Assembly: GCA_947629125.1 (NCBI GenBank)
Contig: CANRCO010000001.1
Span: 1 to 52,440, forward strand
DNA length: 52,440 bases
Source: an uncultured Bacilli bacterium
GTDB taxonomy: Bacteria; Bacillota_I; Bacilli_A; RF39; UBA660
Direction: 5' to 3'
A model generated the notes under the pieces. It was not told where the DNA came from, searched no databases, and was given only the letters and a program-made list of their open reading frames with translations. Both the position numbers and the translations under genes were made by a program. Below, piece after piece: positions 7,365 through 23,658 of the stretch (position 1 is its first letter; each line of letters opens with the position of its first letter).

Positions 7365-7383
7365 GTATCTTATTTAAAAATCC

Positions 7384-7412
7384 ATAAAAAAAGAAATGAT
7401 TTTTCATTTCTT
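7384..7412 (-). terminator. Candidate terminator after the ABC exporter gene (the hairpin contains its TGA stop)
   Basis: Inverted repeat agaaatga / tcatttct spans roughly 7392-7409. On the minus strand it is followed by TTTTTTTATGG. Confidence 0.5.
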
Positions 7413-9047
7413 TAAAACTAATTTTTTATTTTTTAGTGTATAGATTAAATCAGCATTAAGAGCCATTTTATTATCATGAGTTATCATAATAATTGTCATT
7501 TTATTTTTTAATTTAACTAGGACTTGAGCTATTTGTTCACTAGAAGTACTATCTAAACTACTAGTTATTTCATCTAAAAGTAATATTTTAGTTTTACTAA
7601 GTAATGCCCGAGCTATTGCTAAGCGTTGTTTTTCTCCCCCACTTAAAATACTAGCATCTTCACCAATAACAGTATCATAACCTTTTTCTAAAGATTTAAT
7701 TTTTTTATCTAGCCCAACTAATTTACATACTTTTTTTATATTATTAAAGTCTTCATCAATCATGCTTAAATTTTCTTTAATACTTAAATTAAAAATATAT
7801 GGTTGTTGGGTTACTAAAGCAATATTACTTCGAATACTTTCTTCATCTAACTCATTTAATAAAGCATTATCAATATAAATTTTACCAGCAGTTGGTGTAT
7901 ATAATTTAGTAATTAAATTAAATATTGTTGTTTTACCTATGCCACTTGGCCCAACTATTGCTACAAATGATTTAGCATTAATTTTTAAATTAACATCTTT
8001 TAAAATTAAATTATTATCATAACCAAAAGAAACATTTTCTAAAGTAACACTACCTTTCACATTTGTTAATTTTTTATCACCATAGTTTTCGATTTCATAA
8101 TCTAAAACGGAAAATATTCTTTTACTAGCTAAATTAAATTGGCTTAAATAAGTAATTAAAGTAGCAAACTTATTAGAAAAATTAAAGACATTAGTTTTAT
8201 ACATAAATATGATAATAAAATTAGCAGTACTTAATAATTTATATTTAATTAAAAAGATTGCTAAAAAAACCATTAATCCATAAAAAACTGATTCCATAAA
8301 ACGAGCTATTTTATTAGATACTTCTAAATAATAACTACTTTTATATTCTAGTTCTTCGATTTTTTCAAAATTATTATTAGTTTTTAAATCAAATTTATCT
8401 TTTAATTGTAAAGTTTTAATATCTTTATTACCTTTTAATATTTCACTTACTAAAGATGTATTATTATCATTTAATAATAAACTTTGATTATGATAATAAA
8501 TACTTTTTCTTATTCCATAATATCTTATTAAAATTGTACTAATAGATGCTATTAAATAATAGATACCAATTATATAATTTAAATAAAATATATATATTAA
8601 TACTCCAATATTACTTAATGCAATAAGTAAACTTTCTTTAATGTTATTTAAAAAGTTAGCTATACTACGAGTATCATTATTTAATTTATTTAAAATAGTT
8701 CCAGTTAAATTTTCATGAGTTTTAGCATAATTTAAATTTAAAATTTTATTAAAAACTTTTCTTTTTATATTTAAAACAAATTTTTTACGAAAAGTTAAAT
8801 AATTTTTTGCTAACCTTAGATTTAAAAATGTATTAAGTAGTTGTAAACAACCTCCGACTATTGCTAAAATAAATACTATTTTATAATTAGAAGCTAATAT
8901 TTTATTTATAATATTACCATTAATTGAAGGTGTTACTGCTCCTAATATAGCAATTATTAAACCAATTACAATTAAATAAATTATTTCTTTTTGACAATTA
9001 TTTAAAAACTTTATACATTTTTTTAAATTTAAATAAGTATCTTTCAT
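7404..9047 (-). CDS. ABC exporter, fused TMD-NBD half-transporter (MsbA/PglK-like); no C39 peptidase domain
   Basis: 547 aa. The hydrophobic N-terminal half is followed by Walker A GPSGIGKTT, signature LSGGEKQRLAIARAL and Walker B ILLLDEITSSLD. The start overlaps the stop of the upstream GT4 gene by 4 nt. Confidence 0.9.
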   Translation of the reverse strand: MKDTYLNLKKCIKFLNNCQKEIIYLIVIGLIIAILGAVTPSINGNIINKILASNYKIVFILAIVGGCLQLLNTFLNLRLAKNYLTFRKKFVLNIKRKVFNKILNLNYAKTHENLTGTILNKLNNDTRSIANFLNNIKESLLIALSNIGVLIYIFYLNYIIGIYYLIASISTILIRYYGIRKSIYYHNQSLLLNDNNTSLVSEILKGNKDIKTLQLKDKFDLKTNNNFEKIEELEYKSSYYLEVSNKIARFMESVFYGLMVFLAIFLIKYKLLSTANFIIIFMYKTNVFNFSNKFATLITYLSQFNLASKRIFSVLDYEIENYGDKKLTNVKGSVTLENVSFGYDNNLILKDVNLKINAKSFVAIVGPSGIGKTTIFNLITKLYTPTAGKIYIDNALLNELDEESIRSNIALVTQQPYIFNLSIKENLSMIDEDFNNIKKVCKLVGLDKKIKSLEKGYDTVIGEDASILSGGEKQRLAIARALLSKTKILLLDEITSSLDSTSSEQIAQVLVKLKNKMTIIMITHDNKMALNADLIYTLKNKKLVLKK

Positions 9048-10171
9048 TTTAATAAATCCTTATATATTTTAGTATATTGCGGTAATATTGTTTCAATATC
9101 ATAATTTTTAGCTATTTTTAAATTATCTTTACTTAGTTTACTAGCTAATTTTGGATTATTTTTTATCTTTTTAATAGCCAGAATTAATTTTTGTGGGTCA
9201 TTTATTGGAACTACTAACCCATTTTTATTATGTTTAATTAAATCATGGTTACCGCGACAATCTGTAACAATAATTGGTTTTTGTTTAGCCATTGCTTCCA
9301 TTATATTAAGTGGTAATCCTTCTTGTTTACTAACGGATAAAACTAGATTAGTTATTTCTAAAATGGCATTAATATCATTTCTAAATCCTAAAAATAAAAT
9401 CTTATCTTCTAAATGATATTTTTTAACTAATTTTTGGACTTGTCCATTTAAAATATCTTCTCCGACTAATAAAACTTTTATATTAGTTAAATCCATTTGA
9501 CGTAAAGTTTTAACTAAATATTTTTGTCTTTTACGTTTAGAAATTTCTGCTACATAAGTAATTACATAATCATTTTTTTTAATACCTAATTCTTTTTTCA
9601 AAGTATTTTTCTCTTTTAAAGTTAATTTATTATGAAAATTATTTTGATGATAGCCGATTCCTTTAATAAAATAAGTTTTTACTTTAAAATGTTTTTTACT
9701 AAAATTATAATCTTCTTTATTAATAGTTACTAAACAATCAGTATATTTAATTAAATATTTTTCAATAGGATAATAAAGTATCCAATTAATTAAAGGTGCT
9801 CCTTTAAAAAAATGTAAACCATGAACTGTATATAATACTTTAGAATGAACTTTGGCTTTAGCAACTGCTAAACGAGTGTTTACTCCACCCATTGGAGTAC
9901 TAGTTGATATTAAATCATATTGTTCTTGTTTTAAAATTTCTGCTAATTGTTTAATAGCTTTAAAATTACAAAATTTAAAAGGAGTCCTTGTTATCGGCAA
10001 AGCAAATTTTTTATCACAATTAGGAATTTTATTTTTTGTATTAGTTGCTACATGAACAATGTAACCATTATTTTTAAACCAGGCAATATAAGGTAAATAA
10101 CATAAGTTTATATGCATATCTGTATTAGCAACTATTAAAACTTTTTTTGCCAAAATAAACCCTCCTTTCAA
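9044..10171 (-). CDS. Glycosyltransferase, GT4 family
   Basis: 375 aa. Motif EGLPLNIMEAMAKQKPIIVTD (E-x7-E) with a GT-B-type layout. Confidence 0.85.
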   Translation of the reverse strand: MKGGFILAKKVLIVANTDMHINLCYLPYIAWFKNNGYIVHVATNTKNKIPNCDKKFALPITRTPFKFCNFKAIKQLAEILKQEQYDLISTSTPMGGVNTRLAVAKAKVHSKVLYTVHGLHFFKGAPLINWILYYPIEKYLIKYTDCLVTINKEDYNFSKKHFKVKTYFIKGIGYHQNNFHNKLTLKEKNTLKKELGIKKNDYVITYVAEISKRKRQKYLVKTLRQMDLTNIKVLLVGEDILNGQVQKLVKKYHLEDKILFLGFRNDINAILEITNLVLSVSKQEGLPLNIMEAMAKQKPIIVTDCRGNHDLIKHNKNGLVVPINDPQKLILAIKKIKNNPKLASKLSKDNLKIAKNYDIETILPQYTKIYKDLLK

Positions 10172-10173
10172 AT

Positions 10174-10899
10174 TTATTGTTTTATTATTTCTTTTTTTAA
10201 TTTTAAACTAATATCGTAACGTTTGCCTTTCATTAATTGAGCTTTTATTTTTGTTTTAGTACATAAATTTTTAATTATTTCCCCCATTGAATCAACCTTT
10301 TTATTTTCGTCAAATATTTCTAATAATATTTTTAAATCTTCCTTTTTTAACCAATAAAATGGCGGAATAGCATAATTGCTTCTAGGATGAATTGGTTTTT
10401 CTTCCATATTAATTATATAATTATTTTCATCTATTTCAATAACTCCTGTTTTTTGTAATTTAGATAACTCTGGCTCAAAATAATACATAATATATGATTC
10501 GTTATTTTTATTAAAATCATCAAAAATATATTTTAAAGAAAAATCTAATAAGTTATCTCCAGCTAAAACGAAAATATCATCATTAATTTTTAAATAATCA
10601 ATTGTTTTTATTAAAGCTGATACTGCTCCAACTTTATTTTCTTCACATGTTGAACCATCACTTACTATCGTAATTTTAGTTTCTAACTTTTTCTTTTGAT
10701 GCCATTTTTTAAAATCATCTAAAAAAGTATCATTAGTAATTATAATAAATTCATCAATATGATTAGTACTGCTAATAATATTATCCATAATATAATCTAA
10801 AATATATTTTTCTTTAATATTTAATAGAGCTTTAGATTTATGTAAAGTTAATGGATACAATCTTGTCGCATAACCACCAGCTAAAATTAAACATTTCAT
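10174..10899 (-). CDS. Sugar-1-phosphate nucleotidyltransferase (NTP_transferase family)
   Basis: 241 aa. The N-terminal MKCLILAGGYATRLYPLT matches the G-x-G-T-R-L pyrophosphorylase signature. Confidence 0.85.
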   Translation of the reverse strand: MKCLILAGGYATRLYPLTLHKSKALLNIKEKYILDYIMDNIISSTNHIDEFIIITNDTFLDDFKKWHQKKKLETKITIVSDGSTCEENKVGAVSALIKTIDYLKINDDIFVLAGDNLLDFSLKYIFDDFNKNNESYIMYYFEPELSKLQKTGVIEIDENNYIINMEEKPIHPRSNYAIPPFYWLKKEDLKILLEIFDENKKVDSMGEIIKNLCTKTKIKAQLMKGKRYDISLKLKKEIIKQ

Positions 10900-12038
10900 A
10901 AACCAACTCCATTATAAGTATTACAAAAATAAATTGCAAACTCTTTTTTATATTGGGGATATATTTTAAGATATTTTTCCGTAACAGTTTTTTTAATTAT
11001 ATCCTCTTTTTGAGGATCAATCAAAGCCATATAATAGCCATTAAATCCTGCTCCAGAAAATCTTCCCCCATAAACACCATCCAAATTAGTAACGATATCA
11101 TGTAAAGTTTCTAATTGCGCCGAACCAGTTTCATAATTTTCAATTGAGCTTTTTCCCGACTCAGTTATAAGTTTGCCAAAATTAATTAAATCGCCTTTAG
11201 TAAAATATTTTATTCCTTCTTGAACTCGATTTAATTCAGTATAAAAATGGGTAGCTCTTTTAATATGATTTATCGGAAAAATATTTTTATTTTTTAAAAA
11301 TATATCATAAGAAAATTTTCTTAAATATGCTTCTTGATATTCAATTGGAGAATTTTGCATTAAAGAATTCATTAAAAATGCTGTTGTTTTACATTCATCT
11401 ACGCGAATATTATAACTTGTAGTTGGTAAATTATGAGTAATTCCTGAAAAAATTAAACATATTTTAAAATTAAGATTATCATTTATTTTAATTAATTTAT
11501 GACTATTATCTAAAGGGTCAATACATAATAAATGATTTTTCTTACTATATATTTCGCAACTTGGATCTAATATCCCGACTTTCGTATTCATATATTTATT
11601 TTCTACAGTTACAACTAAATCAACTAAGTCTTTATTTTCTAATTTTAAATTATTTACTTTAGCTATAGCTAAAAGATAACATAAAATTATTGCAGAAGAT
11701 GAAGCAAGTCCCCCAATCGGAATCGTTTTATCAATATGAGCATTTATTCCATAAATAAGTTCATATTTTTCCTTTAAAGCCTTAATACTACCTATTAAAT
11801 AATCTGGCCATAACCCATTTGTTTTTGGAATATTTTTATAAGAAAAATCAGCTACACCATCAAAATTATCCGACGTAATAAAAAAAGAACCATCAGTTGT
11901 CTTGTTAAATTTTATTTTTAATCCCTTATCAATAGCAAAACCACATATTAAACCTAGTTGATGATCTATATGAGCTCCTAAAGGACAAACTCGAAAAGGG
12001 ACAAATATTTCGTATTTATAATTAAGTTGTTTTTTCAT
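10896..12038 (-). CDS. GHMP-family, galactokinase-like anomeric sugar kinase
   Basis: 380 aa. VPFRVCPLGAHIDHQLG resembles the galactokinase signature. PIGGLASSSA is the GHMP ATP-binding motif. The stop overlaps the start of the nucleotidyltransferase gene by 4 nt. Confidence 0.8.
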   Translation of the reverse strand: MKKQLNYKYEIFVPFRVCPLGAHIDHQLGLICGFAIDKGLKIKFNKTTDGSFFITSDNFDGVADFSYKNIPKTNGLWPDYLIGSIKALKEKYELIYGINAHIDKTIPIGGLASSSAIILCYLLAIAKVNNLKLENKDLVDLVVTVENKYMNTKVGILDPSCEIYSKKNHLLCIDPLDNSHKLIKINDNLNFKICLIFSGITHNLPTTSYNIRVDECKTTAFLMNSLMQNSPIEYQEAYLRKFSYDIFLKNKNIFPINHIKRATHFYTELNRVQEGIKYFTKGDLINFGKLITESGKSSIENYETGSAQLETLHDIVTNLDGVYGGRFSGAGFNGYYMALIDPQKEDIIKKTVTEKYLKIYPQYKKEFAIYFCNTYNGVGL

Positions 12039-12110
12039 TTTACTACACCTATGTTTAATTCCTATAAATTAATTATAAAGAATAAAATTTATTATTGCAA
12101 GTCTTATAAG

Positions 12111-13163
12111 TTACTTATTTTTAATAAAGCCAAAATAATTACACATACATCTTTTACTAGGACAGATAAATTCATCTTTAATTAACTTAATATCTTTTTT
12201 TAAAGCATTACCTACTACTGATAATTCATTACAAGAAACACAACGAGAAATAATTCCTAAATTATCAATTGAAATACTATTTACTCCGGAATCACAAAGC
12301 ATACCACAAGGATTAAAACCACCTTCAACATTTAAAGCTAAATCACTAGTATTGTAAAAATAAAATTCTTGATTTTTTTGGTTTGTTACCTTTAACCATT
12401 TTTGGTTATTTCTATTTAGTTTTTGTTTTAAAGTTGCAGAAATACTTTTATGATAATCACGAATAATTATATAAACAATAGAAGAAGCATATTTTTTATA
12501 TTTCTCATAAAATTCTTGATATTTTAAATAATCTGCATCTTCAACTAAAGGATAACCAATATTAATTTTGATATTATAATTTCTCTTAGCTAAAAAATTA
12601 ATAAAAGGTGCTATAATTTTATTTTCATATTTAGCTTTTTTTAATACTAAAGAATTTATTTTAGGATGTTTATTACGAATATATTTGATTTTTTCCATGA
12701 ATTCTTTTTGATTTGTATATTCTTGATAATAATTAGCGGATATATTTAAAATTCGATTATCTAATCCTTTAAAAATATTTGTTATATTTTTTAATTGTTC
12801 TTTAGATAAAGATAAATTAGTAGTAATATAATAATTAATAATTCCCTTAAATTTAACATTAGCTAAATTAGTTAAAATAGTTATAAAATCTTTTAAAATA
12901 GTTACTTCTCCTCCAATTAAATAAAGAGAAATAGTTTTATATTTATCATTTAATTCATTTTCAATAAATTTAATAATTTTAGTACATATTTTAGCTCTTA
13001 TTTGTGCTGATTCGCCTTTACTTTCTTCAATATGTTTGTTTTTATTGCCTTGAATACAAAAATCACAATAATAGTTACATAAACTAGTTAATTGCCAACG
13101 AATTGTATAGTTTTTATCTTTTCGTTTTAAATTTTCAATTGTTTTTATTTCTGAATTTTTCAT
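12111..13163 (-). CDS. Radical SAM enzyme with a Cys-rich SPASM/twitch-like C-terminal region (paralog 1)
   Basis: 350 aa. It has a CNYYCDFC (CxxxCxxC) cluster motif. The C-terminus CGMLCDSGVNSISIDNLGIISRCVSC...CPSKRCMC fits a C-x(9-15)-G-x4-C pattern plus extra Cys. Confidence 0.8.
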   Translation of the reverse strand: MKNSEIKTIENLKRKDKNYTIRWQLTSLCNYYCDFCIQGNKNKHIEESKGESAQIRAKICTKIIKFIENELNDKYKTISLYLIGGEVTILKDFITILTNLANVKFKGIINYYITTNLSLSKEQLKNITNIFKGLDNRILNISANYYQEYTNQKEFMEKIKYIRNKHPKINSLVLKKAKYENKIIAPFINFLAKRNYNIKINIGYPLVEDADYLKYQEFYEKYKKYASSIVYIIIRDYHKSISATLKQKLNRNNQKWLKVTNQKNQEFYFYNTSDLALNVEGGFNPCGMLCDSGVNSISIDNLGIISRCVSCNELSVVGNALKKDIKLIKDEFICPSKRCMCNYFGFIKNK

Positions 13164-13210
13164 ATTATCACTTCTAATTAAAAATTATAATATTTATTAT
13201 GAAAGGAGTC

Positions 13211-13243: not shown

Positions 13244-13250
13244 ATTTTAA

Positions 13251-13784
13251 TTACTTTGTCAATTTTCTTACTTTTGCTTCAGTATCATTATTTACAATTG
13301 TAGCTGGTAAATAAGTAAAATCTGTCATACTAAGCAACCCATTTTCACCATTCATTTTTTGAACTTCAAGATAATTTTTATTATTATAAACAGTAATATT
13401 ATCACTTATATAATTATATATTCCCAGTGGAACTTCCTCTACTTTGGTATTAACATTAATTAAACCATATGTTATGCTAACTTGATCTTGCTTTCCATTA
13501 GGAAAATAATTAATTTTCATAATTTTACGATATTCTTGATTATTTTTTGCAAATATTGGATTATCACTAATTTTAGAATAACCTCTTTGTTTAATTACAC
13601 TAGTTAAATCAGTTGTTTCATCAATAGCTAAGTTGGAATATTCTTTTATAGAATTAGGATTTTTATAAGCTGTATAACAAGTAGTAGCTATCATTGCTCC
13701 AACTGCCAACGTACAAAGACAACCAGGTAAACATCCAGAAGATGCATATGTTTTACCATCATCATTATGCCAATTTTCTTTCAT
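13251..13784 (-). CDS. Hypothetical protein with an N-terminal Cys-rich hydrophobic segment
   Basis: 177 aa. The N-terminus contains SSGCLPGCLCTLAVGAMIATTCYTAY. I recognise no family. Confidence 0.6.
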   Translation of the reverse strand: MKENWHNDDGKTYASSGCLPGCLCTLAVGAMIATTCYTAYKNPNSIKEYSNLAIDETTDLTSVIKQRGYSKISDNPIFAKNNQEYRKIMKINYFPNGKQDQVSITYGLINVNTKVEEVPLGIYNYISDNITVYNNKNYLEVQKMNGENGLLSMTDFTYLPATIVNNDTEAKVRKLTK

Positions 13785-13845
13785 CTAATTTTCTCCTTTT
13801 AAAATTGCAAAACATATGCTAACAAAAAATACGCATTTTGTCAAA

Positions 13846-15009
13846 TTATTTTAAAATACTTTCCCATTTATTTAATATCTTATCTTTTGTAAAATCTTGA
13901 ACTCGTTTTTGACTAGCTAATTGATAATGTTTATATAACTTTTTATCATTTAAAAGTAATAAAATACTTTTAGCTATTTCTTTTTCTTCTTTAGTTAAAG
14001 CATCACCTGCTTCATATTTAACCCGATCACAAGTCGGAATTAAAATACCATAATCTCCTAAAGTTACTTTTTTAACAAATTTATCTAACTTTTTCTTAGG
14101 GGCTAAAATTTCTTTGGAACCACCTGGAGCATCTGTAGCAATAATTGGTAAATCACAAGCCATTGCTTCTAATAAAACATTAGGCATTCCTTCATAAAAA
14201 GAATTTAAAATATATATTTTAGCATTGTGCATATAACGATAAATATTATCAACAAAATCTAGTATTATGATATTTTTTTCTAAATGTAAATCTTTAACTA
14301 ATTTTAAATAATAATCTTTATATGGTCCGCGTCCAGTCAAAATTAATTTAGCGTTCTTCTTTTGTTCAACTACTTTACTAAAAGCTCTAATTAAATGCCA
14401 TTGTCCTTTTTGATAATTATATCGACCAGAAGAAATTATTACATCACCTTTAAAATATTTTCTATCTTCACTAGGTAAAGCTTCTTGTTTTTTTTCATTA
14501 ATATCTTCAATTTCACAAAAATTAGGAATTACAATATTTTTTTTAGGTTTAGAGTGAAAATTTTCAATTTGGTCCAACATAACTGATTCAGATACATTAA
14601 CTATTAAATCAACTTTCTTAATTATTTTTTTATATTTTTTAATTAATTTTGGAGAATACATCTCATCATTAGCTGAAATAAAATTTCTAACAGAAATTAT
14701 TACTTTATCTTTATATTTAGTTACATAATTATAAATATTATATTTAAGTATAAAACTAATTGTATAGTCTATTTTTAACTCTTTTTTTACTTTTCTTAAT
14801 TTCCATAAACCAATAAAATTTTTCTTTTTACTAGTTAGTTCAGGAATTTCAATTATATTAACATCGGGAATATAATCAGCATCTTTCATCGTTCTAACTA
14901 CTAAAGTAACATTATGTTTATCTTTTAGATTATTGCATAAATTATAAATTACTTTTTCTGCCCCACCTGTACGCATAGCACCTATCAAAAATAAAATATT
15001 TTTTTTCAT
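13846..15009 (-). CDS. Glycosyltransferase, GT4 family (paralog of 18231..19385)
   Basis: 387 aa. Motifs: GGAEKV at the N-terminus and EGMPNVLLEAMACDLPIIATDAPGGSKEIL. Confidence 0.85.
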   Translation of the reverse strand: MKKNILFLIGAMRTGGAEKVIYNLCNNLKDKHNVTLVVRTMKDADYIPDVNIIEIPELTSKKKNFIGLWKLRKVKKELKIDYTISFILKYNIYNYVTKYKDKVIISVRNFISANDEMYSPKLIKKYKKIIKKVDLIVNVSESVMLDQIENFHSKPKKNIVIPNFCEIEDINEKKQEALPSEDRKYFKGDVIISSGRYNYQKGQWHLIRAFSKVVEQKKNAKLILTGRGPYKDYYLKLVKDLHLEKNIIILDFVDNIYRYMHNAKIYILNSFYEGMPNVLLEAMACDLPIIATDAPGGSKEILAPKKKLDKFVKKVTLGDYGILIPTCDRVKYEAGDALTKEEKEIAKSILLLLNDKKLYKHYQLASQKRVQDFTKDKILNKWESILK

Positions 15010-16614
15010 TTAATCACCTACATTTTCTTTATACCACAATTGAAATAAATAATAAGACCATAAAACAACAGCTCGATCATAATCTTTATTAATTTCAAAA
15101 TCAATTATTAAATTCATTAAATTATTATAATCAAATAAATTTTGTTTTGCTATAAAATTTTTCGTTGATATTTTTTTGATATCATCTAACATAAATTTCT
15201 GAACCCAACTAATTAAAGGAATCCCAAACCCTTTTTTTTGATAATTAGCAAAATATTTCATCGGAATATTTTTAAATAAAATATTATCAAAGATAAGTTT
15301 ACCATGACCATGATGATATATCTTTTTTGTTTTTAATTTAAAAGTATCTAATATTAATTGTTCATTATAAAAAGGTGTATAAAACGCCATATTAATATTT
15401 TTTAAAGGATAAAAATACTTCATCCGATATTTTTCACTAACTGTATTATTTAAATCACCAAGACATGCTCGATATCTTTTATTTTTTAATTTTGGCAAAT
15501 CATAAACTTGTCCCTTAATTTTAACTAAATTATTGGAATACCGAAAACGACTTACAATATTTATTTGCGCCATTTGGTCAAAATTATGATATTTTCTTTG
15601 TCTAAAATATTTATTAAAAATTAATTTTAATCGACCTTTTAAATCAAATATTTTATACATTTCATTAGCTAAAAATATTGCATCACTACCTTCGCCCATT
15701 AAATAAAAATCATTTTTATCAGTTATATTATTAATTAAGTAATTTGTTGGAATAATTGAAGGGTCTGCAAATGGTTCTTCATATATTTTAGCTAAAGATT
15801 TAATAGTATCTTTAATTTTATTTTCTTTTAAAATAATAGTATGATGATTAGTTTTTAAAAACTTTGCAATTTTTTTCGCAGCAGGAGCTTCATCATTTTG
15901 ACTAGGAATAGATAAAGTATAAGTATTAATAGTTGGTAAATAACAATCTTGGGTCTTTTTAGCTAGAAGGACTGAATCTTTACCACTACTCAAAAACACC
16001 CCTACTTGGCTTTTCTTTTTGCCAACTTGAGCTACTAAATTATTTATTGTCTTTTCTAAATCGACATCATTATTTTTCAAAGTGTTTTTATATTCATTTG
16101 CTAAATTAAAATAATTTTTAATTTTAATATTTTTAAAATTATATTCTAATATGGAACCTTTAGGTACTTTATAGATATTTTCATAAATAGTAAATGGTTC
16201 ATAAATATAAGTATAACCTAAGTAATTAGCTAAAGCTTGTTTATTTATTTTTTTTACAATACTAGGTAATTTAGTAATCTCTTTTAAAGAATCACTAAAA
16301 ATTAACAATCTATTTTGGAAAGTATAAAACAAAGGATAACTCCCTAATTTATCTTTAATTAAAAATAAAGTTTCTTTATTTTTATCAAAAATTATCATAT
16401 TAAAATTACCAGTCAACTCATCAATAAATTTTAAATTGGTTTTAGTATATAAATCTAATAGAATATTTAATTCATTAACACTATTTATTTTATTTTTTTG
16501 TTTTAACTTTTCTAAATTAAAAATGGTTCCAATTAAATATATTTCAACATTATCATGACTTATTTTTTTTGGTAAATTTATTTTAAAGCTCTTATCTTTT
16601 TGTAAACTTATCAT
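15010..16614 (-). CDS. Asparagine synthetase (AsnB)-like ATP-dependent amidoligase lacking the N-terminal Cys nucleophile
   Basis: 534 aa. It begins MISLQKD rather than MCG. It keeps the AsnB-type GNFNMIIFDK..LFLIKDKLGSYPLFY segment and a PP-loop-like FLSSGKDS. Confidence 0.8.
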   Translation of the reverse strand: MISLQKDKSFKINLPKKISHDNVEIYLIGTIFNLEKLKQKNKINSVNELNILLDLYTKTNLKFIDELTGNFNMIIFDKNKETLFLIKDKLGSYPLFYTFQNRLLIFSDSLKEITKLPSIVKKINKQALANYLGYTYIYEPFTIYENIYKVPKGSILEYNFKNIKIKNYFNLANEYKNTLKNNDVDLEKTINNLVAQVGKKKSQVGVFLSSGKDSVLLAKKTQDCYLPTINTYTLSIPSQNDEAPAAKKIAKFLKTNHHTIILKENKIKDTIKSLAKIYEEPFADPSIIPTNYLINNITDKNDFYLMGEGSDAIFLANEMYKIFDLKGRLKLIFNKYFRQRKYHNFDQMAQINIVSRFRYSNNLVKIKGQVYDLPKLKNKRYRACLGDLNNTVSEKYRMKYFYPLKNINMAFYTPFYNEQLILDTFKLKTKKIYHHGHGKLIFDNILFKNIPMKYFANYQKKGFGIPLISWVQKFMLDDIKKISTKNFIAKQNLFDYNNLMNLIIDFEINKDYDRAVVLWSYYLFQLWYKENVGD

Positions 16615-18227
16615 GTTTTATCCCTCCATAAATCTTCTATATATTCTTGGTACCATAATTGAAAGATATAATAAGCAAAAATTATATTACATTCTCGGCG
16701 GTCTAAAGATTTATTTTGTAATTTTTTTAGAAGTTTTAAAAATTGTTTATCAAATAAATTTTGTTTTTTTAAAATTTCATAATTACTAAATTTTATAATA
16801 TCATTATAGAATATATTATACAAATATTTTTCTAAAGGAATACCAAAACCATTTTTCTTTTGATTTAAATAACTTTGGGGAATTTTTTGATAAACTATGT
16901 TTTTTAAAATATATTTAGTTATATTTTGATAATATTTAAATTTATGTTTTATTTGTAAGCTTTTTTGTACTACTATATTATCTACAAAAGGATGAGCTAA
17001 ATTTAAACCATAATAATTAGCTGGATTACTTACTTTATAAAATAAATTACAAGATAAAAAAGTTTTAATATCGTTTAACATAAACTTAATTTGCGAACTA
17101 AACTGATGGGGAATTACATTATAGATTTGAGATTTTAAAGGATAATATAATGCTAGTTGTCGATTAGATTTTAAATATGGATTATAAACAATGACATTTT
17201 TATTTTTTAAATGTTGAATTTTTTGACGCAAAATTGTCATTCGCTCACTTATATTCCATTCTTTGTAAACATTGGAACCACAAAATAATTGGTCAGCACC
17301 ATCACCAGTAAAGATTATATCCATATTTTTTACTTTACTGTTTAAAAATATAGTTGGAACCAATGACGGATCAGCAAATGGTTCACTATATATCTTAGGT
17401 ACTAATTTAATAATTTTTTCAACATCTTTATCAGTTATATAATATTCGTGATGCTTGGTCTTTAAATGCTTAGCAATTTTTTTACTACGTACTGCTTCAT
17501 TGCGTTCTTCTTCATTAAAACCAATTGTAAAGGTATGAACTTCTTTTTTAGCTTCTTTTAATAAAGCAGCTACTAAAGTAGAATCTACTCCTGCACTAAA
17601 AAAGACCCCAACTTTTTTATAGTTTTGCGATTGCATCTTAACAGCATCATATAAACTTTGTTCTAATTTTTGTTGAGCTAAATCATAATTTTTTAATTTA
17701 TTTTTATTGACTTTATATGCTTTTATTAAATCATAATATTGATTAAGTATAATTTGTTCATTAAATTTTAAAGCCATACCTGCTGGTAATTTTTTTACTT
17801 CTGTAAAAATAGTCATTGGTTCTAAAATATAATTATAACTTAAATAGTTAGCTAATTGTTGTCGGTCAATATTTAAATCAGTTTTATAATTATTTATAAT
17901 ATATTTCAAGTTATTAGAACAAATAAAATCTTGATTAATTAAAGTATAATATAGTCGTTTAGAGCCCATTTTATCTTTAACTATAATAATTTCTCCAGCA
18001 ATAATTAAAATAAGTAAAAAATTACCATTTAACAAATTAAATAATTTGTCTTGATAACGGTTATATAAATCAATTAATTTTGACTCAATAGATTTAGAAG
18101 AATTATCTAATTCATTTATATTATAAATATTACCAGCAATAAAGCAGTAATCTTTATTTATTTGTTTAACATTATTTTCAATAATTACTTTTATTTTATT
18201 TTTTCTTTTTATTACTGTAAATTCCAT
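16611..18227 (-). CDS. Asparagine synthetase (AsnB)-like enzyme lacking the N-terminal Cys nucleophile (second copy)
   Basis: 538 aa. It begins MEFTVIK. Motifs: GNFLLILIIAGEIIIVKDKMGSKRLYY and PP-loop FFSAGVDS. The stop overlaps the next gene start by 4 nt. Confidence 0.8.
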   Translation of the reverse strand: MEFTVIKRKNKIKVIIENNVKQINKDYCFIAGNIYNINELDNSSKSIESKLIDLYNRYQDKLFNLLNGNFLLILIIAGEIIIVKDKMGSKRLYYTLINQDFICSNNLKYIINNYKTDLNIDRQQLANYLSYNYILEPMTIFTEVKKLPAGMALKFNEQIILNQYYDLIKAYKVNKNKLKNYDLAQQKLEQSLYDAVKMQSQNYKKVGVFFSAGVDSTLVAALLKEAKKEVHTFTIGFNEEERNEAVRSKKIAKHLKTKHHEYYITDKDVEKIIKLVPKIYSEPFADPSLVPTIFLNSKVKNMDIIFTGDGADQLFCGSNVYKEWNISERMTILRQKIQHLKNKNVIVYNPYLKSNRQLALYYPLKSQIYNVIPHQFSSQIKFMLNDIKTFLSCNLFYKVSNPANYYGLNLAHPFVDNIVVQKSLQIKHKFKYYQNITKYILKNIVYQKIPQSYLNQKKNGFGIPLEKYLYNIFYNDIIKFSNYEILKKQNLFDKQFLKLLKKLQNKSLDRRECNIIFAYYIFQLWYQEYIEDLWRDKT

Positions 18228-18230
18228 CTT

Positions 18231-19385
18231 TTATTCCTCGATAATTTTTAACCAATCTTGCATAACTAAAATATTTGTAAAATCATTGATTCTAGTTAAG
18301 GATTTTTTGTGATATTCTTCATAAGTTTGTTTATTTTCTAACAATTCTATTATGGCCTTAGCTAATATTTTTTCATTTTTGGTAATTGTCTCAATTTCAT
18401 GTTCATTAATAAAACTAGGTATCAATAAACCATAATCACTTTTTGTTAATTTCGTTGTTATATTATTAAAATCATAAGTTTTACTTAAAATTTCTTTAGA
18501 ACCACCTGGAGCATCTGTAGCAATAACTGGCGTACCACAACTCATAGCTTCAATTATTACATTAGGAAATCCTTCATAATCACTAGCTAATATAAAACAT
18601 TTTGCCTTTTTTAAAAATTGATAAGGATTAGGATGAAATCCTAAAAAGAAAACATTATTCTCTAAATGATACTTTTTAACTAGCTCTTCTAAATATTCTT
18701 TTTGAGGTCCACGACTAAAAATAACTAAATGAGCATCTTTAACATTTTTTACAACCAAACTCATAGCTTTAATTATATGTTTATGTCCTTTATGAGGTAC
18801 TAATCTTGCTAAAGCAACTACTAAATGGTCATTAACAATTGGTTTATCTTCTTTACTAAAACGTTTTTTTACTTCTGTAGCGATTTCTTCCAAATTGCAA
18901 AAATTAGTTATAACTGCCACTTTTTCGGCAGCAGCATGATAATTATTTATTTGGTCATTTGCTACGCTATTCGAACAACAAACTATTTTATCGGCTTTTT
19001 TCAAAGATATTTTGTGTAAAATTGTGGGAATAAATCCCTCTTTTTTCGTTGATAAATGGTTACGAACAGAAATTATTACTTTATCTTTATATTTTGTAAT
19101 AGCATTAAAAAAATTAAAAACTGTAGTATAACTTATCGTTACATCAATTTTATATTCTTTTTTTAACTGACGAATTTTACGAATACCAAATATTTTTTTC
19201 TTTTTATTTTTTAAATCGGGTACTTCAATAATTGGCACAGTAGTTTCATAATCTTGATTACGTTTTGAAACTACTACTAATATTACGTTATGTTTTTTTT
19301 GTAATTCATTAGCTAACTTAATTATGGAATGCTCTGCTCCACCATTAGATAGATAACCAATAAGTAACATAATATTTTTTGCCAT
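18231..19385 (-). CDS. Glycosyltransferase, GT4 family (paralog of 13846..15009)
   Basis: 384 aa. Motifs: GGAEHS and EGFPNVIIEAMSCGTPVIATDAPGGSKEIL. Confidence 0.85.
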   Translation of the reverse strand: MAKNIMLLIGYLSNGGAEHSIIKLANELQKKHNVILVVVSKRNQDYETTVPIIEVPDLKNKKKKIFGIRKIRQLKKEYKIDVTISYTTVFNFFNAITKYKDKVIISVRNHLSTKKEGFIPTILHKISLKKADKIVCCSNSVANDQINNYHAAAEKVAVITNFCNLEEIATEVKKRFSKEDKPIVNDHLVVALARLVPHKGHKHIIKAMSLVVKNVKDAHLVIFSRGPQKEYLEELVKKYHLENNVFFLGFHPNPYQFLKKAKCFILASDYEGFPNVIIEAMSCGTPVIATDAPGGSKEILSKTYDFNNITTKLTKSDYGLLIPSFINEHEIETITKNEKILAKAIIELLENKQTYEEYHKKSLTRINDFTNILVMQDWLKIIEE

Positions 19386-19386
19386 A

Positions 19387-20445
19387 TTAAGACCTTCTTT
19401 CTATTAAAGTATAATAATCACAATTACATTTTGTAGCGGGACAAATAAACGGTTTAGAAATTAATTTTAAGTCATTATCTAAAATATTAGTAATTATAGT
19501 TTCTTTAGCACAACTTAAACAGCGTGAAACATCACCCATATTATTAATAGTGATACTATTCATTCCTGAATCACAATACATACCTTTTGGATTAAAAGTA
19601 TCTGATACTTTTATATTTATTTTACTTGTATTAGTAAAATAAATTTGTTCATTATTTTTTAAAGTAACTCTTATTTTTGGATAATTATTTTTATTTAATT
19701 TCTGTTTTAATTTAGAAGAAATACTTTTCTTATAATTACGAATAATTATATAGTTAATAGTATTAACATACTTTTTATAATGTTTTTTAAATTTTTTAAA
19801 TGCTTGATAATCTTCATCAGTAACTAAAGGATAACTTACTCCAATGTAAATATTGGAAATGTCTTTTTCCCATTTATTAATTAGTTTTTTTAATAATTTT
19901 ATTTTTTTAAATAAATAAGCATTATTAACAAATAATTGTTTTATTTTATTTTTAATTTGAAATATTTTTAATTTATCAATAAAATCTTGAGGTGTTGTAT
20001 ATTCTTTATAATAACTAGCTGTTAAATTAAGAAAACGATTATTTTTATTTTGAAAAATATCTTTTATTTTTTGTAAATTGTCTTTTGATGTTGATAAATT
20101 AGTGGTAATAAAAATTTTAATTATGCCCGGAAATTTAGAATTTACTAAATCATTTAATATTTTAGAAAAGTCCTTTAAAATAGTTATTTCTCCCCCAATA
20201 AGATATAAATAAATTTTTTGATATTTTTTACTTACTTCATTTTCTATAAATTTAATTAAATTAGCACATATGTGCTCGCGAATTTTCATTGATTCCTTTT
20301 TACTATCACTTAGATGTTTAGCTTTATTTCCTTGCACACAAAAATCACAACTATAATTACATAATTTAGTAATATTCCATCTAATTATATAAGTATTTTT
20401 ATCTATTCGTAAATTCTCAATTTTAATTATATCTTCATTTTTCAT
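19387..20445 (-). CDS. Radical SAM enzyme with a SPASM/twitch-like C-terminus (paralog 2)
   Basis: 352 aa. Motifs: CNYSCDFC and the C-terminal CDSGMNSITINNMGDVSRCLSC...CPATKCNC. By eye it is about half identical to 12111..13163. Confidence 0.8.
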   Translation of the reverse strand: MKNEDIIKIENLRIDKNTYIIRWNITKLCNYSCDFCVQGNKAKHLSDSKKESMKIREHICANLIKFIENEVSKKYQKIYLYLIGGEITILKDFSKILNDLVNSKFPGIIKIFITTNLSTSKDNLQKIKDIFQNKNNRFLNLTASYYKEYTTPQDFIDKLKIFQIKNKIKQLFVNNAYLFKKIKLLKKLINKWEKDISNIYIGVSYPLVTDEDYQAFKKFKKHYKKYVNTINYIIIRNYKKSISSKLKQKLNKNNYPKIRVTLKNNEQIYFTNTSKINIKVSDTFNPKGMYCDSGMNSITINNMGDVSRCLSCAKETIITNILDNDLKLISKPFICPATKCNCDYYTLIERRS

Positions 20446-20510
20446 AACAACCTCTAACTACATAAAAATATCATATCACAAAATTTTAGGTAAATAAATA
20501 AAGTATTCAT

Positions 20511-21806
20511 CTATTTTGAATACTTTTTATTTTCATTTAATAGCCCCATAACTATATAAAATAATGGTGCTACCATAATAACACTGATATTGAAGAAAGC
20601 TTGAATTAAATAAGCTAGAAAGGCCAGAAAATAAATGTAATTTTCTTTTCTATCTTCTTTATTTTTTATATATTTAATTATTGTAAATACTAGTAAACCT
20701 AAATAAGTAATTATAGAGAAAATACCTTCGGTAATAAATTTTTGTAAATATTCATTATGAGCTTTATCAAAACATTGTCCTTTTGAACCAATACCCACAC
20801 ATATATAATTACCCTCATTTATTAAAGAAAAATTATCAATACCCATACCAGTTAAATAATATTTTGGGGCATAAGAAAGTGTTTTTTTCCAAACATATAC
20901 ACGATAATTACCTGTTTCATCAGTGATACCTTTTTTAAATATATTTTTAATTTCAATGAAATTTTTATTCATGGTATAAGTAATACGATGGTTAGCAAAT
21001 TGGTCAAAAATTAATATTAACGCAATTAATAATCCTAAAGTAGATGACCCATATAGAACTACTTTTTTAATATTATTTTTATTTATTTTAGTTAACAATG
21101 TAATGAGAATAATTAATCCAGCTGCTAGATAACAACTAGTTGTATTACCAATAATTAAACCGTAACCAAATAACAATGTTAATAAACCATAAATTATACC
21201 ATGCTTTTTATCTTTTGCTTGAAGTAATTTACCATAAACTAACATCAAACACATTAAAATATAACTTGAATAAAAGTTGGGATTACTTAATGTGCCACTA
21301 GCAAATTTAAAATGAGCTGACCAATTATCACTACGGTCATAACCTAAAATATTTTCAATTCGCAATGTTTGAATTGTTCCTAATAAAATTTGATATATAC
21401 CACTAATTATAATCGTATAAAATATAACTTTTTTTTGGTCTTTATTTAATGTAGATGCTAATAAAAAGATAAAGTAATAACTTAATATAACTAATAACCC
21501 TTCAAAACGACCTTCAGCACCATATAAAGCCATTTTACCATCAAGGGCAAATTTATATGATATATAAGCAAATATAATTAATAATAAAATAAATAAATCT
21601 TTAAAATGGATTTTATCACGATTAATTATTTTATATGTTGTGTAAAAAAATAATGCACAAAAGCCAAAACAAAATAAGCCTAAAGAAAAATAATAATAAG
21701 AAAAGTCAAAGATAATTTTAATTGTTGTACCAACACTTAAATATGCCACTAATAGTATTATTAGTAGCATATTTATAAGGTCGTTCATTTTTTTTAAACG
21801 TTTCAT
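20511..21806 (-). CDS. Wzy_C / O-antigen ligase-family polytopic membrane protein (candidate O-oligosaccharyltransferase or polymerase)
   Basis: 431 aa with many hydrophobic helices. The segment KAHNEYLQKFITEGIFS matches the H-N-x-x-L-x4-E-x-G signature of WaaL, PilO/TfpO and PglL family proteins. Its ATG (21804-21806) overlaps the TAA (21806-21808) of the restored reading frame of the last pilin gene. Confidence 0.75.
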   Translation of the reverse strand: MKRLKKMNDLINMLLIILLVAYLSVGTTIKIIFDFSYYYFSLGLFCFGFCALFFYTTYKIINRDKIHFKDLFILLLIIFAYISYKFALDGKMALYGAEGRFEGLLVILSYYFIFLLASTLNKDQKKVIFYTIIISGIYQILLGTIQTLRIENILGYDRSDNWSAHFKFASGTLSNPNFYSSYILMCLMLVYGKLLQAKDKKHGIIYGLLTLLFGYGLIIGNTTSCYLAAGLIILITLLTKINKNNIKKVVLYGSSTLGLLIALILIFDQFANHRITYTMNKNFIEIKNIFKKGITDETGNYRVYVWKKTLSYAPKYYLTGMGIDNFSLINEGNYICVGIGSKGQCFDKAHNEYLQKFITEGIFSIITYLGLLVFTIIKYIKNKEDRKENYIYFLAFLAYLIQAFFNISVIMVAPLFYIVMGLLNENKKYSK

Positions 21807-22416
21807 TAATTTGATCCTGTTGAAATGCCAATGTCTGATGAAGTGCCTAAATTTTCCAAATCAAAATATTGTCTTAAACTATTATCAGAAGTAGCATATG
21901 CATAATTACATTCCTTACTTTTAAATACATTTAGACTTCCAAGATTATACATTGTAGAACCTGACCTTTCGCCGCCCTGCGAAATATAATTAACCGTTCG
22001 ATTATTTAATTTTACTACTTTACCAACGATTTTAGTATCATTATCATTGCTAGCATCTTCACCATCTATTGCTAATTTTGAATCAGATATAAAATATATT
22101 TTATTAATTTTTCCATTAGAATCTTTATTTATTTTTACTGAGCCAAAATAACCATCCTTAGCACTTTATCATAGTAGCCTAAATCAGCAAGATATTGCAT
22201 AGAAATAATTATATAATCATATTGATTTAATTCAGCTCTACTACTATAAGCAAGTTCTGCAGCTTTAACAAGAGCTCGACCATCATCAATTAATGATTTT
22301 CTTCGTGATTGGTCAAGAATTGGTAAAACACCAACTGCTGCTATCAACATAACAATTGCTAAAATGGTAATTACGGCTAGTAATTCGATTAGTGTAAATC
22401 CTTTTGTATTATTCAT
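21806..22416 (-). pseudogene. Type IV pilin-like gene 3, interrupted by a 1-nt frameshift near 22163
   Basis: The N-terminus MNNTKGFTLIELLAVITILAIVMLIAAVGV is intact. After ..LGYYDK the annotated frame stops at 22135. The -1-nt frame instead reads AKDGYFGSVKINKDSNGKINKIYFISD...ENLGTSSDIGISTGSN* down to 21806, parallel to DGYSGSVYIEYNGG in pilin 1. Confidence 0.7.
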
Positions 22417-22430
22417 TCTCAGCCTACTTC

Positions 22431-23027
22431 CTAATCACTTACAGTTGCAAGTTCAGTAACACTAGGAATACTTCCACTAGCACCAGAATTTGTAAAGAAT
22501 ACTAAACCAGTACTTTTCATTTTTACGCCAGTATGAGTTTTTAAATAATCATATAATTTTTGACCACCACTAACTGTACTTGTATAAGCTAAAAAGGCTG
22601 TATTATACTCTGCATCAGTCTTATCATCAGATTCTCTTCGTGAATAATCTGTATTATCACCTACTGAAAGCGGTTTTCTCTTATAACCATATGTACCATC
22701 ACTTATCGAAAAATGATATTCTACTTTTTTGCCATTTTTTTCAACATGAACAGCACCGCTATAACTAGATGATTGTTTATCATAGTAACCTAAATCACTT
22801 AAAAAATTTAAACTTAAAACCAAATCATCATACTTTCGCAAAGAAGAATTTTCAGTATAAGCAAGTTCTGCAGCTTTTACTAATTCTCTACCTTCATTTA
22901 ATAAAGATTTTGCTTTTGACTTTTCAATCATTGGCAATACACCAATTGCAGCAATAAGCATTACTATACCTAAAATAGTTATTACTGCTAATAATTCGAT
23001 TAATGTAAATCCTTTACTTTTTTTCAT
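22431..23027 (-). CDS. Type IV pilin / pseudopilin-like protein 2 (prepilin N-terminal cleavage/methylation motif)
   Basis: 198 aa. MKKSKGFTLIELLAVITILGIVMLIAAIGV has the G/FTLIE class III signal with Glu5. The C-terminal tail is Ser/Thr/Gly-rich (NSGASGSIPSVTELATVSD). Confidence 0.85.
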   Translation of the reverse strand: MKKSKGFTLIELLAVITILGIVMLIAAIGVLPMIEKSKAKSLLNEGRELVKAAELAYTENSSLRKYDDLVLSLNFLSDLGYYDKQSSSYSGAVHVEKNGKKVEYHFSISDGTYGYKRKPLSVGDNTDYSRRESDDKTDAEYNTAFLAYTSTVSGGQKLYDYLKTHTGVKMKSTGLVFFTNSGASGSIPSVTELATVSD

Positions 23028-23088
23028 TTTCTAACCTACTTTCCTATTTTTAAATTTACTATAATATTTAATAAAAAATAATAATATT

Positions 23089-23658
23089 TTATAATTTTTT
23101 ATTATAAATGCTTACTTTTTTACCACCTATGGTTATACTTTGACCTTCATTTATATTACTTGTTCCAGCATATGATGAATTACCACTGTAACAAACTGCT
23201 TCATAATGTTTTGCACTTTCTTTTATTGATTTAGATAAAACATAATCTTTAGCATTTTTATCTTGCATATTATTCATATTTTGCCAAGCAGTTGCTCCAC
23301 TTTTTGTTTCATAACCAATAGTACCTATTTCACTTTTTATTGTATATTTTTTAATTAATTCACCACCATTATATTCAATATAAACACTACCAGAATAGCC
23401 ATCTTCTATACCTTTATCAAAAAAATTTTTATCATGTAACCATTCTAAAGAAATACAAACATTTTTGCCAACCATTTGTTTATTATCAGAATATGCAAGT
23501 TCAGCAGCATGAACTAATGTTTTTCCTTCATCAAATAAAGCATCATTTTTTGATTTAGTCATTACTGGTATAACTCCAATTGCAGCAATAAGCATTACTA
23601 TACCTAAAATAGTTATTACCGCTAATAATTCAATTAAAGTAAAACCTTTTTTATTCAT
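23089..23658 (-). CDS. Type IV pilin / pseudopilin-like protein 1
   Basis: 189 aa. MNKKGFTLIELLAVITILGIVMLIAAIGV. The first ~55 aa are near-identical to pilins 2 and 3; the rest is divergent. Confidence 0.85.
   Translation of the reverse strand: MNKKGFTLIELLAVITILGIVMLIAAIGVIPVMTKSKNDALFDEGKTLVHAAELAYSDNKQMVGKNVCISLEWLHDKNFFDKGIEDGYSGSVYIEYNGGELIKKYTIKSEIGTIGYETKSGATAWQNMNNMQDKNAKDYVLSKSIKESAKHYEAVCYSGNSSYAGTSNINEGQSITIGGKKVSIYNKKL

Follow-up and report, generated by a model that had tools for sequence, protein, structure and literature searches.

What is the role of a gene cluster in which three type IV pilin-like genes, a gene for a Wzy_C-family membrane protein and a long series of sugar-related genes follow one another on the same strand? 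The question is posed by the first 52,440 nucleotides (nt) of contig CANRCO010000001.1 (GenBank assembly GCA_947629125.1), which derive from an uncultured gut bacterium of the Bacilli and are termed the window hereafter. The window is about 23% GC, nearly all of its genes are located on the minus strand, and its genes for AddAB, PolA, MutM, Lon, YetF and TmcAL are those of Firmicutes-type chromosomal DNA. An earlier note, made by reading the sequence without database searches, had proposed that the cluster glycosylates pilins. We give roughly even credence to the view that the block encodes a protein O-glycosylation system, wherein a lipid-linked glycan would be transferred by a Wzy_C oligosaccharyltransferase (OTase) and the adjoining pilins would be the likeliest acceptors. 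This view draws on the observed domain content, protein fold and conserved residues, on genes arranged as in an operon, and on a linkage to pilin genes that is seen across the family.

The block runs from 23658 to 7404, is on the minus strand throughout, and its gene content was verified with Pfam and NCBIfam models. The gene list, order and strand as originally described are upheld. Three prepilin-type genes are followed by the gene for the 431 amino acid (aa) Wzy_C protein, and then by genes for a radical S-adenosylmethionine (SAM) enzyme, a family 4 glycosyltransferase (GT4), two AsnB-like proteins, another GT4, a 177-aa orphan, a second radical SAM enzyme, a GHMP kinase, a nucleotidyltransferase, a further GT4 and an ABC half-transporter. 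There is a 12-gene sugar-assembly and export cassette downstream of the three pilin genes and the Wzy_C gene. The four leading genes are as follows.

23089..23658, minus strand: type IV pilin-like gene 1, 189 aa, beginning MNKKG/FTLIELLAVITILGIV... and ending ...IYNKKL; PF07963, 35 bits; also TIGR02532.
22431..23027, minus strand: type IV pilin-like gene 2, 198 aa, with a Ser/Gly/Thr-rich tail ...NSGASGSIPSVTELATVSD; PF07963, 37.6 bits.
21806..22416, minus strand: type IV pilin-like gene 3, frameshifted, 203 aa when repaired and then ending ...LGTSSDIGISTGSN; PF07963, 37.7 bits on the N-terminal open reading frame (ORF).
20511..21806, minus strand: Wzy_C/WaaL-fold membrane glycan transferase, a candidate O-OTase, 431 aa, 12 transmembrane helices; PF04932, 53.6 bits.

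The PF04932 match of the 431-aa protein covers residues 209-368 and scores 53.6 bits against a cut-off of 31.7, which confirms the Wzy_C assignment made from the letters alone. It is the sole family found in this protein, which carries neither a PglL_A nor a Wzy_C_2 domain. A WaaL fold is supported by an AlphaFold2 (AF2) model (pLDDT 90.9, pTM 0.92) and by Foldseek, wherein the WaaL structure 7TPG from Cupriavidus metallidurans is the only match with E<=0.001 (E 2.6e-5, prob 1.00, TM-score 0.57-0.60). The same structure is the sole match in a profile search of the PDB (E 1.3e-13), with the Arg and the His of the AHN motif aligned. WaaL (7TPG/7TPJ) is therefore the only solved structure that matches both by profile and by fold, although identity is only 12% over the structural alignment. 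A further difference is that the lipid A-core acceptor of WaaL is nonexistent in a monoderm-type organism, which counts in favour of a protein acceptor.

In an alignment of 55 sequences, residues R302, W306, D324, K348, H350 and N351 (KAHNEYLQKFITEG) are invariant and E352 is nearly so. The model has 12 membrane helices with both termini inside, and the alternation of K/R-rich short loops predicts that the 91-residue loop 271-361, which holds the invariant residues, faces outward. This is the extracytoplasmic placement of the His motif that had been anticipated. Activity of TfpM and PglS depends on the His that corresponds to H350, which has been put forward as the catalytic base of WaaL; the Arg residues have been suggested to hold the pyrophosphate of the lipid carrier (PMC9829042, PMC12800693). 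By its modelled fold and its motifs, the protein is a predicted ligase- or OTase-type enzyme.

All three neighbouring genes are of the N_methyl type, with scores of 35-38 bits against the PF07963 cut-off of 21 bits, as the earlier note had expected. Each of the three products has a short basic leader, a G/FTLxE motif and a hydrophobic alpha1-N segment (PF07963/TIGR02532). With pilin 3 repaired, its reading frame closes at 21806, where the TAA shares 1 nt with the Wzy_C ATG (TAATG). On that repaired version, translation of the Wzy_C gene is predicted to be coupled to that of a pilin gene. An O-OTase gene closely linked to the gene of its substrate is a signature known from TfpO, TfpM and PglS (PMC12645811, PMC9829042). 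That this transferase family neighbours pilin genes in many related bacteria suggests, and does not prove, pilus glycosylation in Gram-positive-type bacteria.

The association with pilins extends well beyond the window. All loci retrieved were searched for class III signal motifs, and the matches were grouped according to how far they are from the Wzy_C gene. Six pilin genes are located within <=500 nt in 80 GTDB species-representative loci, a density of 0.76 per 10 kb vs 0.09-0.20 farther out, and all six are upstream and on the same strand. An independent set of 78 metagenome loci from JGI consists of distant homologues (25-40% identity) with no close relatives, and so tests adjacency in distant clades; two of its loci duplicate others (L105 = L106; L136 = L066). 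This set yields 15 pilin genes within <=500 nt, or 2.12 per 10 kb vs 0.00-0.10 farther out (about 30-fold). Every one shares the strand of the Wzy_C gene, with some located upstream of it and others downstream. On a tree of 159 homologues, at least five groups contain pilin-adjoining genes, and in three of them the link to pilins looks uniform where flanks are visible.

The donor modules differ among the pilin-linked clades, with GtrB/GtrA in some, GT2 plus Wzx in others, and the GT4/ABC cassette as a third type. Representative architectures are ValS-pilin-Wzy_C accompanied by a GtrB-like GT2, GtrA, a GDSL protein and in some loci a second pilin; ValS-Wzy_C-pilin-GT2-GtrA; modular pilin-Wzy_C-GT2-...-epimerase-Wzx; and a pilin with a Thr/Ala/Pro-rich tail followed by GT2 and then Wzy_C. 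A Wzx-like gene, recognized from its N-terminal sequence alone with no family scan, is present in the distant pilin-linked clusters L117 and L033. Some Wzy_C domains are fused to GT4, LicD, Bac_transf (a priming phosphoglycosyltransferase) or GT2 (loci L069 10001-12349 and L019 9971-12055; proteins P0075, P0081, P0083, P0101, P0102 and P0112-P0114), and PglC-like genes are located within about 1.5 kb of Wzy_C in 13 loci. These fusions and neighbours tie the family to lipid-linked glycan synthesis.

The nearest clade mates are found in the metagenome-assembled genome (MAG) RGIG4822. On a neighbour-joining tree, the window's Wzy_C protein is sister to a pair of paralogs encoded on a single contig of this MAG (JAFUTX010000013). 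Copy 1 is located between pilin genes in a type IV pilus machinery locus (L007 = L001, 1800-13700). This Tad-like locus encodes TadE, a ParA-like ATPase, T2SSE, two T2SSF proteins and five N_methyl proteins, and it is interleaved with murG-ftsQ; the MurG homologue beside ftsQ, likely a housekeeping gene, is the sole other glycan-type gene present. Its pilins are long and GFTLVE-type, not Flp-type, and two are modular (458-504 aa), at least one of them with a DUF6273-type module. The window pilins are 35-48% identical to these pilins over their full length (43-48% for pilin 1), and tblastn local segments reach 42-55%. Copy 2, some 20 kb away, is fused to GT4 and resides in a glycan cassette that is followed by three genes of the secreted paralog family described below. 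The arrangement of one copy in a pilus locus and one in a glycan cluster resembles that of Acinetobacter, where TfpO is specific to pilins and PglL is a general enzyme (PMC9829042).

The remaining genes of the cassette, listed in the order of the block, are given below.

19387..20445, minus strand: radical SAM enzyme 1, with CNYSCDFC and a C-terminal Cys-rich twitch/SPASM-like region; PF04055, 37.6 bits.
18231..19385, minus strand: GT4 (b); PF00534, 121 bits; best NCBIfam match PglJ, 137 bits vs a cut-off of 500.
16611..18227, minus strand: AsnB-like amide synthetase 1, with the SAGVDS PP-loop kept and no N-terminal Cys; PF00733, 196 bits.
15010..16614, minus strand: AsnB-like amide synthetase 2, with an SSGKDS PP-loop and no N-terminal Cys; PF00733, 99 bits.
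13846..15009, minus strand: GT4 (c); PF00534, 108 bits; orthologues 58-73% identical.
13251..13784, minus strand: 177-aa orphan with a single N-terminal hydrophobic Cys-rich segment; no Pfam or NCBIfam family.
12111..13163, minus strand: radical SAM enzyme 2; PF04055, 27.0 bits, under the 29.5 cut-off; same weak NCBIfam matches as enzyme 1.
10896..12038, minus strand: galactokinase-like GHMP anomeric sugar kinase; PF00288, 52 bits; galactokinase models 145-175 bits, under their cut-offs.
10174..10899, minus strand: sugar-1-phosphate nucleotidyltransferase, with a 4-nt overlap with the kinase gene; PF00483 (NTP_transferase), 108 bits.
9044..10171, minus strand: GT4 (d); PF00534, 115 bits.
7404..9047, minus strand: ABC half-transporter with fused transmembrane and nucleotide-binding domains, of MsbA/PglK architecture, a candidate flippase or exporter of lipid-linked glycan; PF00664 and PF00005.
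1012..2085, minus strand: GT4 (e); PF00534, 128 bits; best NCBIfam match PglH, 158 bits vs 600.

Many of these genes have counterparts in related cassettes. A radical SAM gene directly after Wzy_C is kept in six loci (L003, L005, L012, L016, L088 and L089). Radical SAM enzyme 1 has weak NCBIfam matches to STM4011, twitch and viperin models and no match in a sequence search against the PDB, and radical SAM enzyme 2 is by sequence a clear paralog of it despite the sub-cut-off Pfam score. The orthologues of GT4 (b) are 52-73% identical, GT4 (d) is always paired with the ABC gene (L006, L012, L069), and ABC orthologues in the same three loci are 47-55% identical. The best PDB match of the kinase is 2cz9 (E 4e-28), and the 177-aa orphan has no tblastn match in related loci L001-L086. 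Previously the block had been taken to end at the ABC gene. However, a GT4 (e) orthologue directly follows the ABC gene in L006 and L012, and L069 has both genes in one cluster. On this basis, 1012 is the probable end of the pathway, so that the fourth GT4 at 1012-2085 belongs to it and the genes at 2172-7266 are an insertion.

The two AsnB-like genes named in the earlier note do belong to the Asn_synthase family, but the catalytic Cys is absent from both N-termini (MEFTV... and MISLQ...), and AsnB-like protein 1 has a degenerate glutaminase domain. Loss of this Cys with retention of the PP-loop identifies them as probable ATP-dependent amide synthetases, not glutamine amidotransferases, and suggests that the amide is formed with ammonia or an amine rather than by glutamine-dependent amidation. 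Together, the two Cys-less AsnB-like proteins and the two radical SAM paralogs hint at an uncommon amidated or otherwise modified glycan. In two related loci (L005 12343-15949 and L088 4338-7981), the place of the AsnB pair, behind the radical SAM gene, is taken by two genes for arylsulfotransferase-domain proteins, one of them with LRR_5; this hints at a sulfated variant of the glycan.

From these components the following pathway can be envisaged. A free sugar would be activated by the galactokinase-like kinase and the nucleotidyltransferase, and the four GT4 enzymes, working on the inner side of the membrane, would assemble an oligosaccharide on a carrier of the polyprenyl-(pyro)phosphate type that is primed by a transferase encoded outside the window. 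The AsnB-like pair might amidate carboxyl groups of the glycan while the radical SAM paralogs modify its sugars, and the MsbA/PglK-type ABC half-transporter would carry the lipid-linked product to the outer face. There, the 431-aa WaaL-fold protein could use its invariant Arg/His site to attach the whole glycan to exported proteins, at side chains that bear a hydroxyl group. The pilins encoded directly upstream are the likeliest to receive it, probably in their Ser/Thr/Gly-rich C-terminal tails, and the DUF6273 paralogs encoded within the cassette may be further acceptors.

Various characterized systems share parts of this design. Like TfpO (Pseudomonas aeruginosa 1244 and Acinetobacter) and TfpM (Moraxellaceae), the window enzyme is a single-domain Wzy_C protein of similar length (431 aa vs 420-470 aa; PMC9829042), its gene directly follows a type IV pilin gene in the same orientation (pilin 3 as repaired), and the catalytic His is conserved in an external loop. 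Unlike TfpO and TfpM, it is hosted by a monoderm low-GC member of the Bacilli and not by Proteobacteria, and it is joined at the operon level to its own assembly and export cassette, whereas TfpO and TfpM borrow O-antigen or capsule units. PglL and PglS of Neisseria and Acinetobacter, which are general or ComP-specific O-OTases, likewise have a Wzy_C core with catalytic His and Arg, count pilins among their substrates and may use internal acceptor sites; however, they are 520-620 aa with PglL_A/Wzy_C_2 periplasmic domains, and the window protein has 431 aa with PF04932 only (PMC12645811, PMC9829042).

The closest Gram-positive parallels are the slg clusters of Geobacillus stearothermophilus and Paenibacillus alvei, in which a Wzy_C O-OTase (WsaB or WsfB) is accompanied by glycosyltransferases and an ABC exporter and, in P. 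alvei, by an AsnB homologue (PMC2943079). In those systems, assembly of the glycan on its lipid carrier is intracellular and its transfer extracellular (PMC2943079). The slg clusters have a two-component Wzm/Wzt (ABC-2) exporter, an in-cluster WbaP-type primer and an S-layer protein target (PMC2943079), whereas the window has a fused MsbA-like half-transporter, no primer, pilin or DUF6273 candidate targets and no TPR element seen. The Pgl system of Campylobacter jejuni also combines an ABC half-transporter of MsbA architecture with GT4 enzymes, which in that case act on a lipid-linked oligosaccharide destined for protein; it differs in that its OTase, PglB, is an STT3-type N-OTase instead of a WaaL-fold O-OTase candidate.

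Several considerations weigh against a role in pilin glycosylation. The fold and motifs of the 431-aa protein do not distinguish O-OTases from ligases with non-protein acceptors. The ABC and GT4 proteins give superfamily-level matches only and are far under the relevant equivalog cut-offs (PglK 180 vs 1000, PglH 158 vs 600, PglJ 137 vs 500; the ABC protein also scores 240 bits vs 602 for MsbA), such that the PglK-like flippase named earlier stands as a fused ABC_membrane/ABC_tran architecture but not as a PglK equivalog. As the earlier note had recorded, the 38 scanned window ORFs of >=80 aa include no Bac_transf/WecA-type, Wzx, prepilin-peptidase or T2SSE/T2SSF domain, and of these the missing primer and pilus genes are unfavourable. 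The pilin C-termini (...NKKL, ...TVSD and ...TGSN) do not end in Ser or Thr, the defining acceptor feature of TfpO and TfpM substrates; in other clades, the last residue of Wzy_C-adjoining pilins is K, N, E, Y or the like. All pilin-adjoining examples are from uncultured MAGs or metagenome contigs, and all of the evidence is genomic.

The pilin gene that adjoins Wzy_C is also broken as assembled. It consists of a 93-aa ORF (22135-22416), with the remainder (21806-22160) in another frame. The 1-nt frameshift lies in an AAA run at 22165-22167, and one added A restores the 203-aa product. Thus, the three pilin genes described previously are all of the expected type but the third is interrupted, and the intergenic gaps of -4 to 87 nt that had been reported hold for the repaired gene and not for the assembled one. 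The frameshift may be a sequencing or assembly error or a true pseudogene. Phase variation, acting as an on/off switch, was also considered as its cause, and we rejected this idea on the grounds that an A3/A4 run is too short to argue it.

Further unfavourable evidence comes from close relatives, which are known from rabbit and ruminant gut MAGs assigned to uncultured Bacilli bacteria. Homologues that are 44-57% identical head the same type of cassette, with radical SAM, GT4, AsnB-like, kinase, nucleotidyltransferase and ABC genes, at chromosomal sites that vary (after ParB and a 489-aa protein, Rpe, SpoIIP or InfB). No pilin gene is present near the Wzy_C-led cassette in about 13 distinct close relatives in this identity range, and in the window's own clade pilin neighbours are found only at the window and at the sister paralog in the pilus locus. 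The occurrence of pilin-free cassettes at varied sites indicates that the cassette is not dedicated to pilins, in disagreement with the module as first conceived. In one close relative (L090 7296-9809), a YfhO-family gene (GT-C, cell-wall glycopolymer glycosylation) is convergent to the Wzy_C gene. The original proposal of pilin glycosylation is partly supported, with a WaaL-fold enzyme, coupling to a pilin gene and family-wide enrichment in its favour, and with pilin-free cassettes in its own clade, a frameshifted pilin 3 and pilin ends devoid of Ser/Thr on the other side.

The alternative that best survives is that the cassette makes a surface glycopolymer, such as a capsule, a secondary cell-wall polymer or a lipid-anchored glycan, with Wzy_C polymerizing it or ligating it to a non-protein acceptor and the pilins being accidental neighbours. 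We regard this as unlikely but as deserving serious attention. The pilin-free, Wzy_C-led cassette at varied sites in most close relatives is what would be expected of a mobile polysaccharide cassette, and the YfhO-type gene that adjoins one relative (L090) and the frameshift in pilin 3 point the same way. Moreover, the Wzy_C domain is common to polymerases and ligases (PMC12645811). However, the scanned window ORFs contain no Wzz, LCP-type or S-layer-type domain, and the absence of Wzx and Wzz genes distinguishes the locus from Wzx/Wzy-dependent systems, which rely on a flippase and a chain-length regulator. Because Wzx and Wzz are missing while an ABC exporter, which makes an external polymerase unnecessary, is present, a Wzy polymerase role is argued against. 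A loop with invariant His and Arg is what ligases and OTases typically have, and an 8- to 30-fold same-strand enrichment of pilins in at least five clades is hard to put down to chance. Finally, the sister paralog resides in a pilus locus that lacks dedicated glycan genes except for the likely housekeeping murG homologue.

A second alternative retains protein O-glycosylation but assigns it mainly to the DUF6273 paralogs, or to a broad set of exported proteins as for a general PglL-like O-OTase, with the pilins at most minor substrates. The paralogs nearest to the cassette form one array.

2172..7266, minus strand: three tandem secreted paralogs of 588, 566 and 537 aa; no Pfam match at E<0.01.

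There are five copies in the window (5500-7266, 3797-5497, 2172-3785, 41579-43171 and 51309-52440, the last of which is not truncated but continues past the window end). Each has an N-terminal anchor or signal ending in G-x-x-Y/L-A/S-[LF]-W, a beta-sandwich and a divergent DUF6273 domain. A homologue that is 43% identical (P0127) passes PF19789 at 32 bits, and the top Foldseek match of an AF2 model (pLDDT 85.8) is the T. ramosa IgAse, whose N-terminal domain is DUF6273. A TasA/SipW-like identity of the signal and beta-sandwich was also considered. The trace is faint (Foldseek 7UEG, a Pyrobaculum bundling pilin, prob 0.97, TM-score 0.15/0.36, with no Pfam or NCBIfam match), and the idea was set aside.

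Paralog genes interrupt the cassette in the window, immediately precede Wzy_C in L012 and immediately follow it in L069, and this linkage in three genomes makes the DUF6273 paralogs, judged from gene order, an equally good candidate for the acceptor, a further point against the pilins. L007 contains modular pilins that themselves bear DUF6273, and adjoining pilins are absent from most close relatives. In L105 (1707-11829 of JGI contig Ga0247608_10000002), two tandem units are present: a 1205-aa secreted protein-Wzy_C-GT2, and a 426-aa modular pilin followed by a second Wzy_C. The protein that precedes each Wzy_C ends in a G[VI]RP..I motif, like the RP[VL]..I motif of DUF6273 C-termini, and then a short Ser-rich tail, and is DUF6273-type by this motif only. 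Against such a reading, gut metagenomes contain over 3000 homologues of the family, and five copies are present in this 52-kb window; chance adjacency is much likelier for so large and multi-copy a family than for pilins. In addition, a hairpin and a separate promoter-like site are located between the paralogs and the ABC gene, and two whole clades pair with small pilins that lack DUF6273. The suggestion in the earlier note that these secreted proteins are an alternative target is thereby strengthened by cassette linkage and weakened by family size. We consider it distinctly improbable that they, or exported proteins in general, are the main acceptors. It is plausible that they are additional ones, and the copies at 2172-7266 may be alternative acceptors or an unrelated insertion.

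A third possibility, that the radical SAM, AsnB-like and ABC genes form a maturation and export cluster for a ribosomally synthesized and post-translationally modified peptide instead of a glycan pathway, draws on the twitch/SPASM-like radical SAM enzymes, the Cys-less AsnB homologues with weak lasso-cyclase model matches (65-84 bits vs 525) and matches to bacteriocin-type ABC models, but it is scarcely credible and was rejected, since these genes are interleaved and co-conserved in related cassettes with four GT4 genes, a sugar kinase, a nucleotidyltransferase and Wzy_C, scans of the window reveal no precursor-peptide ORF, leader peptidase (the ABC protein has no C39 domain) or lasso B-protein, and an AsnB homologue is normal in the S-layer glycan cluster of P. 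alvei (PMC2943079).

The boundary between the ABC gene and the paralog array had been described as a terminator followed by a fresh promoter. Part of this description holds, in that the following feature is present.

7382..7412, minus strand: possible terminator, a weak A/U-rich hairpin with a U-run that overlaps the ABC stop codon; -7.1 kcal/mol, z -1.5.

The hairpin was not picked up by a terminator scanner. The promoter does not fare as well: promoter-like sites number 162 in the window vs 160.9 in shuffled sequence, and the scan is uninformative because matches are as frequent in shuffles of such A+T-rich (23% GC) DNA.

Other features of the window include a tRNA-Glu, which is the only hit in an Rfam scan. 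At 31917-36908 there is a Cys-rich secreted protein of 1421 aa with an adjoining 238-aa protein that has a C-terminal membrane anchor, neither of which belongs to a confident Pfam or NCBIfam family. At 46711-50579, a NodU/CmcH-type carbamoyltransferase gene is located between genes for an SxtJ/DUF5989 membrane protein and a family-less 479-aa membrane-anchored protein. These genes, about 25 kb from the cassette, may serve as a module that O-carbamoylates a surface glycan. At 43172-44307, a DUF1016 (YhcG-type nuclease) gene survives as remnants broken up by several stops, and the sole intact part is a 110-aa N-terminal ORF (43566-43898).

Type IV pilus biology in monoderms is a young field, and the roles known for pilin glycosylation include phage defence, adhesion and immune masking. 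To our knowledge, the characterized classes of pilin-acting O-OTases (PglL, PglS, TfpO and TfpM) are all Gram-negative, and we know of Gram-positive O-OTases only for S-layer proteins. A literature search over a limited collection returned no description of a pilin-linked Wzy_C enzyme in Firmicutes, which is not proof of novelty. From genome comparisons, we tentatively propose, with slightly less than even confidence, that gut monoderm Bacilli carry widespread and previously unrecognized pilin-linked Wzy_C O-OTases, comprising at least five clades served by at least three donor pathways (the GT4/AsnB/radical-SAM/ABC cassette, a GtrB/GtrA route through polyprenyl-monophosphate sugars, and a GT2/Wzx route). 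If this is true, then Gram-positive gut bacteria would commonly glycosylate their type IV pilins, modular DUF6273 pilins among them, and pilin glycosylation would reach the abundant uncultured Bacilli of the gut. The window would be the most complete single-operon version, wherein substrate, transferase, glycan assembly and exporter are encoded together, and it would offer a clear and testable substrate-enzyme pair. Small O-OTases of about 430 aa with new acceptor tails and donor specificities would also become available for bioconjugate engineering.

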